Source: Tricharina praecox | Taxonomy: Eukaryota | Reading direction: 5' to 3' | DNA length: 64,000 nt | Assembly: GCF_024521635.1 (NCBI RefSeq) | Contig: NW_026250410.1 | Coordinates: forward strand, 930,001 to 994,000 | Shown: positions 32,736-39,300 of the stretch, piece by piece | Layout: every line of letters begins with the position of its first letter | Position numbering within the stretch: the stretch's first letter is position 1 | The notes under the pieces: generated by a model | What the model was told of the DNA's origin: nothing | Seen by the model: only the letters and a program-made list of their open reading frames with translations | Database searches by the model: none | Made by a program: the position numbers and the translations under genes

Positions 32736-33069
32736 GATTGCTAGCTGTCTGTCGTACCGTAGTCGTTCGTGGGCCGTAGTCGAGGGCGTATGTAGGGGTG
32801 GGGGTGGAATATCCTTTCAACTCGCTCACAAGCGGGAAGGAGAAAAAAAAAAGTGGGAAATAATTGCCCTTCTAAGGCTTATGTCGTGTGTGGTGTGTGT
32901 GCTGTGTACACCCCCCGCCATGGGGGGCCAGGAGTTCCGTTCCGGGTAACTACTATAACAAAGCTTATCTTCACATGTCTGTCACTCGTGAACAACTCAC
33001 ACCCCCCTCTCCCAGTTCCGCAACCCAATCCAATCCAATCCAATCCAATCCACGCACCCAGCCCATCTA

Positions 33070-33565
33070 TTAAAGTAACGGCCCACCTCCCCCAGCAAAT
33101 GACAGCGAGGCAGCAGCAGCGAAAGACCCCGCAACTAAACTTCGTCGAGCCAAGTTCGAGTGACGTGGAGTGTTTTTCAGCACCGGTAACTACGCCTTTG
33201 AGGCCTCTCCACGTTGCGTCGCCGCGCGCCCCCCGCCCAGGCCCCCGCTCAACCACTATTCATCCGCCTCATGCCGCTCGTCAGCAGATTAGAATTGGAA
33301 TCGACACTGCTGCTGAAGCTGCTCCCCGACCCCGCAGTGATGGGTTCACTCTACCGTAGAGATAGTATAGTACCTATCGACTCGATCCCGCGGTCTCGCG
33401 GTCTCAGGAGATATAAACCCATTGGCCAACCCATTGGCTATAGTAGCCGCTAAACCACCTTTTATCCTCGAAGCTTCAAGAAAAGGATCGAGATGCCCAA
33501 TTATTATCACTATAGAGCCGAAATCACGAGCTCCCACGGCAATAAATCCGGGTGAAGGAAGTATA
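33070..33565 (-). ncRNA. Candidate structured non-coding RNA (unidentified)
   Basis: At least six helices with G-U pairs that favour the minus strand. TATA-like TTATGTAAAG lies just upstream, and no credible CDS is present. Boundaries are approximate. Confidence 0.35.
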
Positions 33566-34094
33566 GGAAGACGTCCAATGGCATGACTTCAGTTTCCGTC
33601 TTTACATAAGCCAATGATTCGCCACCAACCGCGTGCACCAACCCGTTGAAGATCCCCCATTCGCTTATCTCGGCGCGCCGGGTGGTGGTGGTGGTGCTAA
33701 TTGCTCACGGCACGGCGGGAACGAGCGAGCGAGAGAAAAGAAAAGAAAGCAATTGGAACCCAAATCACACGTCAGGCGATTGGGATGAACTCCCCTCCCA
33801 GTGTATGTGATGTATGTGATGTATGCTCGTAGGGATTTTTGTGCCAAATTCCGGAGACCTCCATTTCTATTAAAAAGCTTGCAAAAACCAAAAAACCAAG
33901 AAAAACCACAACAACTCTACCATCAACATCAACTGAGTGTGCTGCCGTTAACTAAACCGATTCGCTGAAACGAGCAAAATAAAATAAAAATAAAAAAACG
34001 ATAAAAAACGATAAAATCCAGACACAAGAAACAGCAGAGCAACTTTTCATCGAGGCGATTATCCAGTAGGAAAAGATGGTAAAGTGCTTCCCAC

Positions 34095-35672
34095 CTAGAA
34101 ACCCCTGCAGGCTTTTGCTCCGCCGCGCCAGTCATCGCGCTCGTAGTACCTAAAAACGAGATCGTAACCGTCAAGCTCGTGCACAATCTTGTCGATCTTC
34201 TTGTAGCCCTTGATCTTGTCCATGCGGTGCGCACGGCGGGCCGCGGTCATGTCATGGAATGCCTCCCTGCCGGGGCGGCTCTCAAGGGCCACAGGCTTAG
34301 CCTCGAAGAGGGTGACTGAGAAGCGTCCGGGACGGAAGATCTCGACCACGTGCTCCAAGATCTCGGCGGTCTCCCGTCCAGACTGGCGACCCGGAACGTT
34401 GGTCTCGAACGAGGCGTATGAGCAGTGAGGCTCGGGGGTGACGTGCACGGTGAAGTAGTGTGTGGTCGTGACGTTCGGGTCGGGGGACGGAATGACACCG
34501 TTGGCTGAGAACCCGCACGGGGAGAAGATGTACGAGTCGACGCACGCATCGGGGTACTTGGACCGAGGGTATGCGTCGTTGAGTCCGCATGCCTCCGAGA
34601 CTATGGCGCCCAGGGCGTGGCCCTCACTCCTGAGGTTCTCGGGCAAGTCGGCGACCCCGCTGTCGATCGACTTTCCGCAGTCGTCATCAGACTCGTCGGC
34701 TGAATTGTCACCGTTCTCCTTGCGGTACTGGCCTGCTGCGATAGTACTCGCGTCTTCGAGATAGAACTGCCTGGCCTTGACTGGGTCCAGGTCCGTCATC
34801 AACACCTCCAACGTCTCGTCGAAGATTCCGTTTCCACTGCCTCCGTCCCGACCTCCGCCAATGTTCTTAAAGATGGCGGCTTCGTCTTCTCCGGGGAAGT
34901 GCAGAATCTTAGTCTCGGTTTGGTGGAGCGCAAACTCCATATCCTCCATCTCACTCTGAGGAGTGAGCGGGGGAGACAGCTCGGAGCCGGGAGTGGTCAT
35001 GTACAGGTACCAGTGCTCGCCGTTGGTCCTGCCGAGCATGTAGGCGCTACCGTTGCCAAACCATCTGTCCAGGAAGTCGACCTCGTCCTTCCAGCTCTGG
35101 TGGGGGTGCATCTGCTTCTGGGGGAACATGAACGACTTGCGCGAGTAAAACACCCTGTACGGAGTGGCTGCAGCCTCTCCGGCATCGGTGAATCCGGCCT
35201 CCTGGGCAGCAATGCGGAGTAGCTCCGGGAGTCCGCTGAGAAGGGTCGTGGTTCCACAAGTCTTCAGGATGAGCTTGTGGGGGAAGACGAACATGCTACT
35301 CTCGCTGAGCAGGTACGCGTCGACGTGCTCGTTACGCACGACCGAGAGAACCTTGCATCGGACAATGTCCAGCATGGCCTTCCACGTGTCTTCCGAGACC
35401 GATTTGAGACCGTCCGGCTGGGCAGACATCGGGAGGAGTTCGGGAGACGGCGTGAACCAGACTTCAAGCAACTTCTCGGGCCCTTGAGGAAACCGTTAGT
35501 ACATACAATCCACCTCACAAGTGCGGGGGCCACCACGGCCCCATTGGTAGTGGAACATACCTTCGAAGGCATTGGTAGAATCCAAATCGATCGTAGCCTC
35601 GTGATTGATCGAGTAGGTGGTGAGAGGCAGGGAAACCTCCGGCATGGCCGATACGTCAACAGTAGCCACCAT
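34095..35672 (-). CDS. SPE2: S-adenosylmethionine decarboxylase proenzyme; 2 exons
   Basis: AFE-GPEKLLEVWF, DAYLLSE/SSMFV (autocleavage site), ILKTCGTT, FSPCGFSANG, TVHVTPE. Confidence 0.96.
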
Positions 35673-35994
35673 TTTGCTGAAAATCAAGTTTTCAAGGCGA
35701 TCTTGCGGGGAAACCTGCTTCGAGATGCTGAATCTATCCAATTACCGGAACCGAGAAGAATCGGAAACGCAGAGGATGAGGATTAAGAGGAGAAGGAGGA
35801 GGACGGTTTTGAGTGGTTTTTGTTGATTTATGGATGGGCGGAAACGATTCGCCGCCCCGTCGTCAAGATACCGATACCTCTTCGTAAGTATCGGTCAAGC
35901 AGACGAGGTGTGCTTGATGGGGAACGCGTGGATGGGGTTTCGTAGGTTCAACGAAGTTTGAATTGATCTTGTAGGTTGGTTATCGGGAGTCGTG

Positions 35995-36219
35995 TTATCT
36001 GGGCCTGTGGAGATGGGTAAAAAAGACCATGGTCAGTCCATTGTCTTTAGAAAGAAGCCCCGCAATGGTGGAATTGAACTATGTCACTTCTCCCAGCTAC
36101 CGCCACACCACCACCGCCACACGGCCTTTGCCGGGGGCATCACGTCACAAACACAGAACGGAGGAGAAAACCTACTTCTTGCGGAGGCTGAGGAATCGAA
36201 GCAGTTGCCTTCGGCTCAT
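35995..36219 (-). CDS. Upstream ORF of SPE2: MSRRQLLRFLSLRKKPR* (17 aa), split by a 171-nt intron
   Basis: ATG at 36219; intron 36005-36175 (GTAGGT...ACTGAC...CCACAG); TAA at 35995-35997. It is the only AUG in the predicted spliced leader. Confidence 0.7.
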
Positions 36220-36246
36220 AAGAATTGAAAAACTTTGGAAATAAAG

Positions 36247-36359
36247 AGGTTTGTTTGGCTTTCCAAGCCTAGAGAACGGTGCCTGGATAGTTCGCCAGAA
36301 CTAATGTCTAGACGAACAAACCTGACAGCCGTCGACGGGGTGTTTGTTTAGGACGTCGA
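36247..36359 (-). promoter_or_regulatory. Candidate cis-regulatory RNA structure upstream of the SPE2 uORF
   Basis: AGGUUUGUU/AACAAACCU closing helix with internal hairpins, plus an alternative pairing partner upstream. Confidence 0.45.
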
Positions 36360-39300
36360 GCCGTGGGTCCGACAGCTTTGCAACTTTGGGGTGGGCGGTG
36401 CGGGGCGGGGCGGGGGAGGATGAGTTGAATGCTGACTAGAATTAAGGTTGTTGTTGTAGTGGTAGGTGCGAAGCCAAAGCGCAGTATTGATTTGGTACGG
36501 GAAGTTGCGTGAGGATTTTTTTTGTCTGAGGGGAATTTATCGATGAGGGTGGAGATGGCGATGGAGAAGACAAAGGATGGGGGGATGGTTCGGTTTTTTT
36601 TTTTCTTCGGGGAGTTGGTGGGAAGGAGGGAAGCGTAGTAGTCGGGGAGAGCGGTGAGGAGCGGAGCGGGATTTATGGCACGTAAGTAACAAGTAGGTTC
36701 TGTGGGACAAGGACGAGGAGGGGAAGTCTAGAAAAAAAATCTGGGAGGCGAAGTGGGGTTGGTTGGGCGGTGGGTTGATCTCTTTTTTTTTTCCCTTCTT
36801 TTTTCTTCTTTTCTTCTTCTTCTTTCCTTTTCTTATGGTGATGCCCGATGGTGGACGGTGGACGGTGGTCGATGGCCCTTTTCTCTGCTCTTGTAAGTCA
36901 ATCCTGTCAAAGGCCTTTTTCCCTGTCGTGTCTTGTTCCTTCTTTCTGTTTTCTGTCTCTCCGAAAAAACGTCTGTGGGCCACTCATCGGGACGAGTAGA
37001 GTGCGATGTATGTATGGATGTGGTAGCTGGTACTCGCGCCACCACCCTGCTTGCTGGGAGAGACAAAGGGAATCCCTGCTGTCGTATTCCTATTCTATGT
37101 AACAACATCACTTGCAGCGCAGTGGACGCCTGCTTCCTGGCATGTATTCCTCCTAGCCCCATGTCACCGTCACCGCCCTTTTGCCTGTGCGGCTCGCCGA
37201 GGTGAAGATGATGATGTCGAGAGAAGGAGGAGGGAAGCCCCCTCAATGCCGCAAGCGAATCTTCCCACACAAGTCACAACTTGGCTTGGCCACAGTTCCA
37301 CGCTAGTTGGTCCCCCCGTTGCGACGACGACGTGTTGGTGGTGCCGCTCGAACGACCGTGCCCCCCGCCCCCCGGCCATAGTGTGGTCGTCGGGACGAGG
37401 GTAATACTTGTTCAACCCGCCTACCGTCCGTGCCCCGAGTTGGTCTCACGATCGGCTCTTAGCCTCTGGATCACGACAAGCGCGCGATCAACGACCGAAG
37501 CGTGCCGCCGAGTGCTCGGCCCACCGGCCCACCGGCACGACCGTCTTGGCCCCGCTCACCAGCCATGTCCTCGGTAAAAAGCTCTCCTCTCTCTCCCACC
37601 GAAGCAGATTCGACAGCTGTGCTTCTCCGTGCAACTGCGAAGCGAGCTGCCCTGAAAAGAAAAGGTCGAATCACTGCGCCTCACTCGCCCGCCCCCCTGT
37701 CCCACGGGGATATCGTGACGACACGGCGGAAAATTGCACTTTTTAGGAGGGCGGCCACGGGGGAGGCTGCACTACGCTACGGGAGCGGAGGAATTTTTTT
37801 TTGGGCTCCATCTGGGAGCGCGACTGCAGGCGCGGCTGGATGGGTACTCATGTATGTACTGGTACCTTGCCGTACCTGTGTGCAGTAAATACGGCTAATG
37901 CTGGGCGCCTGGAAGGCGCTGCGAGCCTGCGGTACTATGTTTAACTACTCTAAGGGCCAGATATCGCGTTTTAGCCTTTCGCACAACAGCCTCTCTCTCG
38001 ACCCCGGAGTACAAAGGTACACAGGTACACAGGTACATGCTTCAACTCCTGCGCAGTGTGGAGATGAAACTTGGGGAAAGCCCGGGGATGGCACGAGAGA
38101 TGAGTAATGAAGCACACTGCTGCAGATGGCCGGTGGCATCACGCTTGGGCAATGGGGAGGGGGGACTTGGAAGTTGAAAGTTGAACTCTCCTCTAATAGG
38201 TACATACAATGCACATGGCCACGGCCCATGGGTCAATGGATTGGCTATGGGGTACGGTACGGCTGGCCGCAGTTCTCCAGAGTCCAGATAGACACGTACT
38301 CTATATGTACATCACGTACACTACCCAGGTGTGTGCACTGTACAATGCATGCGGTTCAGGACTGTACCCGTCATAGGTGCCTAGGTATGATACTTGAGTG
38401 TCCATGTGGGAAGTAGGTATGTGTGTATGTACATAGCACAACCACACAAAATCCGCAGGGACGTACGTACGGATACTTGTATGTACAGTACATAAGCAAG
38501 TTCCTACCGCACCCACACCCACACCCACGCCCATCCAGTACCGGCACGGGAAAGCAAAGAAAAGAAAAGAAAAGAAAAGCGCGGCCATCATACGGATGGA
38601 GGGGATCTCCAGCGAAAAAGAATTTTCCCCCATCCATCGAACCGATGCGATGGGCGAGCGAACGAACGAGCGAAAGAACTTAGAGGAGGGAACAAACGAA
38701 TTGATACTCTACATACGCATGCGGTTTCCGCATTTTAACCTCTAATCTCCAACGTCCAACCTTTAACCTTTTACCTCCAACCTCCAACCTTCACCTCCGA
38801 CCTCTGCAGCGCAACGCAATGCAGAACCCGCGGCGGCTGGCTGGCAGCTCATTGCATCGGTATGTAATTACAGAGTACTTAAAAGTTAACCTACCATCTC
38901 GCGATAGAAAAAACCTAAATAAAAATAGAAAAAAACAAGAAAAAGGGCAGCGGCTTCTTACCGTCAATTCTACTACATATACCGTACTTCAACGCATGTG
39001 GACTTCCGATGGGCGATGGGGTATGAGAGCACTGGAGCAGCGCTAGCATTCAGCATCCAGCCTTCAAAATCCAGCCTCCAAAATCCAGCCTCCAATCCAA
39101 TTGCGGCCAGTCAATCGGTCAGTCGGCCAGTCGGTCAATCAGTCGGTCGGTCAATCGGCAGGAAAGCAAAGTAACGAAAAGAAAAGAAAGAAAAGAAAGA
39201 AAAGAAAGAGAATAGCACGGTGTCGACCGTATGATACCGGTATGTAACCCTGCTAGGTATATCCCAATCCCCATCCCCATCCCACCCCCCGCTTGCGCAA

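Follow-up and report, generated by a model that had tools for sequence, protein, structure and literature searches.

The leader of SPE2, the gene for the AdoMetDC proenzyme, contains in the window (the whole 64-kb stretch of DNA that was analyzed) a short upstream open reading frame (uORF) that is split by an intron and is a divergent member of the Pezizomycotina AdoMetDC uORF family described by Ivanov, Atkins and Michael in 2010 (PMC2811004). Its sequence assigns it to a class-level subtype of Pezizomycetes that lacks Pro13. The uORF probably functions as a cis-acting, sequence-dependent attenuator of AdoMetDC, the enzyme whose step commits SAM to spermidine synthesis, through a combination of leaky scanning, a pause at Pro-Arg-stop that spermidine would lengthen via eIF5A, and a queue-aided use of the weak AUG. 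Earlier publications cover both the uORF family and a uORF interrupted by an intron; the additions are the Pezizomycetes variant, the fixed context of the stop codon, and the loss of a second uORF, which makes the gain from this member useful yet incremental.

SPE2 is the only AdoMetDC match in the 38.4-Mb genome, and its product, counted from the AUG at 35672, has 499 residues in total, with the coordinates of the coding-region intron amended to those in Table 1. The queried part of the protein is 100% identical to an NCBI protein of Tricharina praecox (490 residues), and the next matches carry the NCBI labels Trichophaea, Geopyxis, Pyronema, Tuber, and Morchella; both the SPE2 homologs and a protein tree place the host among the Pezizomycetes. 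Judged by its length, the public protein appears to begin at the second AUG (35645); the AUG at 35672 has the stronger context, adds nine residues, and provides the Met-Val start found in many orthologs.

Table 1. Features of the SPE2 gene and its leader, with positions in the window
Feature	Position	Strand	Basis or remark
AUG-free 5' part of the leader within high-depth contigs	36220–36604	minus	5' end approximate
Upstream irregular stem and small hairpin	36332–36276 and 36270–36257	minus	weaker support
uORF exon 1, 44 nt: poor-context AUG, codons 1–14, two bases of Lys15	36219–36176	minus	sequence, RNA contigs
Leader intron, 171 nt, inside Lys15 of the uORF	36175–36005	minus	joint in contigs of X1 and X2
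uORF exon 2: third base of the Lys15 codon, codons 16–17 (Pro, Arg), and the UAA stop, with C next	36004–35995	minus	
Conserved extended hairpin, ~85–140 nt 3' of the uORF stop	35914–35850	minus	match to a model from 27 non-Pezizomycete sequences
Decayed second uORF (approximate place)	35777–35760	minus	alignment; no Pro-Pro-stop in the window
SPE2 (AdoMetDC proenzyme) exon 1, strong-context AUG	35672–35561	minus	first AUG 3' of the uORF; RNA contigs
SPE2 coding-region intron, 78 nt	35560–35483	minus	skipped in contigs of both X1 and X2
SPE2 exon 2	35482–34095	minus	Pfam PF01536, E 6.9e-113

Re-reading of the sequence bore out the first-pass annotation with respect to the coordinates of the uORF, its splice sites, its peptide, its weak start context, and the number of AUGs. 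The upstream AUG (uAUG, 36219) is located in the context AUUCUU-AUG-A, the leader intron has a GUAGGU donor, a branch-like CUGAC (36036–36032), and a CAG acceptor, and splicing results in a uORF of 17 codons with 322 nt between the uORF and the main AUG. The dependence of the C terminus on splicing, which had been part of the original proposal, is equally evident: the Pro-Arg-stop end exists only in the spliced form, and the unspliced frame ends after 15 residues at a UAG within the donor site. The ATGs present between 36980 and 35672 besides the uAUG are three, all intronic (36140, 36041, and 36030); the next one upstream (36987) is just outside the 36980 bound of the earlier count, and longer, minor RNAs would take in four more AUGs (36987–37162).

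The window was compared with RNA contigs from four (X1–X4) of five available runs, among which X1 and X2 come from two studies. Contigs of X1 and X2 (labelled 'RNA?') skip both introns and therefore represent spliced RNA. Each of the two runs provides one contig of ~2,470 nt (depth 578 and 522, respectively) that continues through the SPE2 coding sequence after a gap of exactly 171 bases bounded by CT..AC, which establishes that the leader intron is removed and that the uORF exons are joined to each other on the SPE2 message, as had been assumed. The uORF joint is present also in one contig of X4, with only 24 letters on its short side, and was not seen in X3 (both X3 and X4 consist of short pieces only); no intron-retaining or alternative joint was found among the listed contigs of the four runs, in which rare forms are dropped. 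Because the contigs of X1 and X2 extend 290–385 nt 5' of the uAUG, the main transcript contains the uAUG, which removes the concern that transcription might start downstream of it. Contig depth drops more than tenfold, to 39 and 23, upstream of ~36560–36610; given that contigs cannot show a start, this is a weak hint that the main 5' end lies near these positions and that the spliced leader comprises ~750 nt. The uORF peptide scores 48.9 against the profile of the other subtype, far above chance: the best of 300 dinucleotide shuffles, in which any GT-AG splice was allowed, reached 23.3. Having just one AUG in the spliced leader departs only mildly from expectation (shuffles average 4.3 AUGs, and 33 of 1000 have one or none).

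Orthologs were obtained from a scan of metagenome contigs, using the best 80 of 525 relatives; six that matched the C-terminal part only were dropped, which left 74 loci (designated by L numbers). These were searched for the uORF freely over all combinations of AUG, donor, and acceptor, and then in a stricter pass. In the free search, the selected donor followed base 44 in all intron-bearing matches but L046, and the stricter pass detected the uORF in the window and in 59 of the 74 loci drawn from the best 80 of 525 relatives. Eleven of the 15 misses have too little upstream sequence: the contigs of L039 and L050 begin inside the intron and have exon 2 visible, that of L041 begins 3' of the stop, and the other eight (≤345 nt each) were placed in this group by length alone. 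Among the remaining loci, L024, L028, and L030 are without this first uORF, and an upstream gene ends ~500 nt before their main AUG; L047 (one contig) kept uORF codons 6–15 and the intron and has no in-frame AUG, with near-cognate codons in frame (L047:1700–1760). The absence of the uORF from three loci and the missing AUG in a fourth indicate that it is dispensable in some lineages. Removal of duplicates resulted in 45 non-redundant copies with 41 unique 54-nt sequences. The copies share common descent, and near-identical strains still occur among them, so that counts based on them overstate their independence. The intron is located inside Lys15, after base 44, in 41 of the 45 copies and has a length of 54–265 nt; the four intronless copies are possibly transcript contigs.

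Across orthologous leaders, the peptide is conserved, which had been named as a check on the initial proposal. In the 41 unique sequences, M1, L6, R8, F9, L10, K15, P16, and R17 are invariant, as is the presence of a stop, and pN/pS (from pooled, uncorrected pairwise counts) is 0.25 over codons 2–17 and 0.17 over codons 6–17. Variable columns comprise all 16 third codon positions but only eight of the 16 second positions. Synonymous codon usage at codons 6–12 is highly varied and, for Leu, Arg, and Ser, extends across codon boxes; this variety points to selection on the peptide.

Seven of the unique sequences, including that of the window, form a subtype with Leu-Arg-Lys (in one case Ala-Arg-Lys) in place of Lys-Pro-Ala at positions 12–14; pN/pS among the seven is 0.33. 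None of these seven Pezizomycete-type sequences has Pro13, which all 34 others have, and the peptide of the window has Gln5 and Arg13 instead of Asp5 and Pro13. They are read as a subtype because the position of the intron, the length, and both ends of the peptide are shared with the rest of the family. In a quick protein tree, the five subtype loci that were included group with Pezizomycetes, and L019 and L066 form long branches.

The mention, in the first-pass annotation, of short uORFs in AdoMetDC leaders of filamentous ascomycetes was correct. The 25 Pezizomycotina AdoMetDC uORFs in Suppl. Fig. 1A of Ivanov et al. (PMC2811004) all have 17 residues and end in Lys-Pro-Arg, and the penultimate proline is described there as common to nearly all AdoMetDC uORFs, across kingdoms. 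The window shares with this family the 17 codons, the AUG after pyrimidines, the L-[LV]-R-x-L core, the terminal Lys-Pro-Arg-stop, and the place in a Pezizomycotina AdoMetDC leader, a few hundred nucleotides before the AdoMetDC start. It differs in having Leu-Arg-Lys where the listed members have Lys-Pro-Ala at 12–14, and in the replacement of both Asp5 and Pro13, which are each present in 25 of 25 members of the list but are not named there as defining. The list includes no Pezizomycete, and the word 'intron' never occurs in the main text of that paper. The subtype suggests that Pro13 and Asp5 are dispensable, which narrows the candidates for what matters in the peptide.

The sequences around the start and stop codons are also fixed to a large extent. 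With 'poor context' defined as in PMC8892498, the uAUG qualifies in all 45 copies: position –3 is always a pyrimidine and +4 is never G. The statistic for –3 is weakened, and in part reflects background, because pyrimidines make up 71% of the 30 nt upstream of the uAUG anyway. At the main AUG, position –3 is a purine in each of the 41 copies in which this AUG was located, and the main AUG is the first one 3' of the uORF in 38 of them. The uORF stop is UAA (34 copies) or UAG (11 copies) and never UGA, compared with UGA in 15 of 36 main-ORF stops; the preceding base is A in 43 of 44 copies (for the other Arg codon, 25 of 44), and the next base is C in all 45, versus 3 of 36 main-ORF stops. A C after a stop codon is a sign of slow termination. 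The fixed bases round the stop also open exon 2, and splicing needs could be their cause.

In the proposed mechanism, routine removal of the intron, which is observed in the RNA contigs, yields a mature mRNA with a 17-codon uORF 322 nt before the main AUG. With the weak context of the uAUG and the strong context of the main AUG, most scanning subunits would bypass the uORF and make the enzyme, and those ribosomes that translate the uORF would end on the conserved Lys-Pro-Arg-stop in a slow termination context and presumably pause. High spermidine would prolong the pause, probably by hindering eIF5A-assisted termination, as is reported for uORFs with a Pro-Ser-stop end; by the same kind of analogy, the paused ribosome would block scanning, and the queue behind it may raise the use of the weak AUG. 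The conserved hairpin downstream of the uORF would add a fixed barrier to scanning, and the outcome would be a negative feedback of polyamines on their own synthesis.

Stalling at this uORF and its response to polyamines are proposed by analogy with known systems. Polyamines reportedly inhibit eIF5A-dependent termination at the uORF of yeast HOL1 (PMC10855120, a secondary citation), and the window has in common with HOL1, the plant AdoMetDC uORFs, and mammalian MAGDIS a short uORF on a polyamine-pathway mRNA (PMC10855120, PMC2811004); a sequence relationship with these uORFs is not claimed. The penultimate Pro is shared with HOL1 and the plant Pro-Ser-stop uORFs, but the window uORF ends in Arg, whereas those that have been tested end in Ser or Pro, which speaks against polyamine sensing. 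A literature search with few subscription papers in its scope found, since the 2010 listing, no experiment on the peptide of a fungal AdoMetDC uORF, be it a polyamine response, a ribosome footprint, or a mutant.

All conservation data would fit equally well with a constitutive damper, a peptide that slows ribosomes at any polyamine level while sensing takes place elsewhere (in the hairpin, in enzyme turnover, or in global start-codon stringency). It would also agree with the SDC (AdoMetDC) leader of N. crassa, whose hairpin is repressive and binds no polyamines, neither spermine nor spermidine, in a study that left uORF-mediated control open (Li and Breaker 2017, PMC5640933). However, the mammalian and plant AdoMetDC uORFs that have been tested are polyamine-gated (PMC2811004), and a constitutive damper is considered unlikely, as it gives little reason for the uAUG to have stayed weak in all sampled classes.

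Nonsense-mediated decay (NMD) as the main output, with termination at the uORF stop sending the message to decay, is less probable still. It would be in line with the presence of the coding-region intron 434 nt 3' of the uORF stop and with the finding that uORFs trigger NMD in N. crassa, but in that fungus the process is independent of the exon junction complex (PMC10578600), so that the uORF intron would not be needed. Moreover, the uORF intron supplies no downstream exon-junction mark because it precedes the uORF stop, and NMD alone leaves the conservation of the peptide unexplained, although it could be a consequence of the stall.

Regulation via splicing, as envisaged in the first-pass annotation, was not supported and is now regarded as improbable to a slightly greater degree than NMD. 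Here, certain conditions would favor intron retention or an upstream donor, with loss of the Pro-Arg-stop end or of the uAUG; the intron position is indeed fixed in all 41 intron-bearing copies, with retention leading to an immediate stop in 33 of them. However, the spliced form alone is present in X1 and X2 (in contigs, which drop rare forms), the immediate stop is absent from the closest listed relative (L002) and seven other copies, and retention in the window would also expose the three intronic AUGs. An immediate stop upon retention is a consequence of an ordinary GURAG donor, which likewise counts against a switch. A designed role of this stop was rejected on the same counts; the control for it (12 of 36 coding-region donors) was unreliable, having included intronless genes. 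In N. crassa, the SDC leader has two uORFs, two donors, and one acceptor; one splice form keeps just the 3' half of uORF2 and is without both uORF starts (PMC5640933). That leader shares with the window a leader intron that splits a uORF and a conserved hairpin but differs in an extra uORF1 and an alternative donor, neither of which was seen in the window. Candidate GU dinucleotides for such an upstream donor exist at 36321 and 36436, yet no corresponding joint is present in the contigs, from which rare forms could escape.

Conservation at the RNA level, or a peptide acting in trans without a stall, is highly improbable: although the bases round the stop are more fixed than coding requires, the varied synonymous codons at 6–12 point to the peptide, and no read-through extension is conserved (its length ranges from 3 to >40 codons, with nothing shared past the first residue or two).

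Of the two RNA structures that the first-pass annotation had placed on either side of the uORF, the downstream hairpin is well supported and the upstream stem only weakly so. A hairpin model built from 27 non-Pezizomycete sequences matches the window at 35914–35850 with 26.9 bits (E 2.4e-5), and the next best match in the 64-kb window reaches 11.2 bits. The model scores 23–31 bits in L002, L003, and L007–L012 and 18.9 bits in L004 and L005, with no match in L019; the core of the hairpin is located 50–115 nt past the uORF stop in 37 of the 45 copies. Its structure of 21 pairs, which was derived from the same 27 sequences on which pairing was counted, is 95.9% paired, with three pairs changed on both sides and 11 on one side. 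The hairpin may be identical with the SDC motif (Li and Breaker 2017), for which it is a candidate; its upper stem has 9–12 bp, compared with ~11 bp in that motif. A search of Rfam gave no match at E ≤ 1 at window positions 33000–39000 and two chance-level matches in six loci. A two-state switch in the hairpin was considered and not adopted: the window and most copies from other classes would allow an alternative 5' hairpin, but L004 and L007–L009 would not, and this alternative is less stable in all 37 copies. Non-Pezizomycete leaders (L039, L041, L047, L050, and others) have additional conserved short hairpins between a second uORF and the main AUG, none of which is present in the window, and one of these could be the published SDC motif instead.

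The upstream stem of the window has a fold z-score of –2.77, and 2 of 200 shuffles are as stable. In the consensus of the seven Pezizomycete-type sequences, 4 of 22 pairs are changed on both sides, and the covariation term is unfavorable; the stem can be drawn in six of the seven, and one sequence breaks most pairs.

A second uORF, which starts at a non-AUG codon, mostly AUU, and ends in Arg/Leu-Pro-Pro-stop 105–280 nt past the first stop, is present in 39 of the 45 copies (36 of 37 of the common subtype and 3 of 8 of the window's). An in-frame AUU with A at –3 is located 15–17 codons upstream of its end in 36 of the 39. It lies 3' of the hairpin, with ends, for example, near position 2739 of L045 and 2844 of L007, and is present also in L024, L028, and L030, which are without the first uORF. 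The best score for a second uORF in the window is 6.1, whereas the minimum among members is 16.9; L004 has kept Arg-Pro-Pro without a stop, and L066 has the first uORF only. The leader of the window is thus reduced to one conserved uORF and, because the second has decayed, offers a simple system for testing Pro-Arg-stop sensing. The literature search found nothing in print on the second uORF; its end resembles that of a nematode AdoMetDC uORF of 17 residues (Ivanov et al. 2010, Suppl. Fig. 1B, PMC2811004).

A more tentative reading is that two interchangeable sensors of 16–17 codons with a Pro-x-stop end, one with a weak AUG and KPR-stop and the other with AUU and RPP-stop, flank the hairpin in AdoMetDC leaders of filamentous ascomycetes and that lineages have dropped either; the stop and the C that mostly follows it may be part of the sensor. 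The fungus of the window and its family-level relatives have only the first uORF, in its Pro13-less form, and L024, L028, and L030 have only the second. If this reading is true, leaders that naturally have one sensor would broaden polyamine/eIF5A termination sensing to include Pro-Arg-stop and would delimit the minimal peptide for it.

An 11-nt inverted repeat in the leader intron (36048–36022, minus strand) has the branch-like site in its loop, and just 4 bp of the repeat are present in L002; the corresponding branch-site hairpin was dropped as a candidate (z –1.17; 27 of 200 shuffles equally stable). Upstream of SPE2, low-depth RNA contigs indicate a divergent plus-strand transcript (37352–38000) with a GT..AG intron at ~37852–37915, and a plus-strand ORF of 107 residues (37565–37888) gave no Pfam match. 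In the 160 nt before the uAUG, none of the eight copies of the window's subtype has an extra AUG uORF, compared with 24 of 37 of the other. In the window, a CUG with A at –3 opens a frame of 24 codons (36376–36302, minus strand) that ends ~80 nt before the uAUG; the length of this frame, though not its peptide, is kept in L002 and L004 (with GUG), and the frame is shifted in L007–L009. It might be a stand-in for the short extra AUG uORF of the other subtype.
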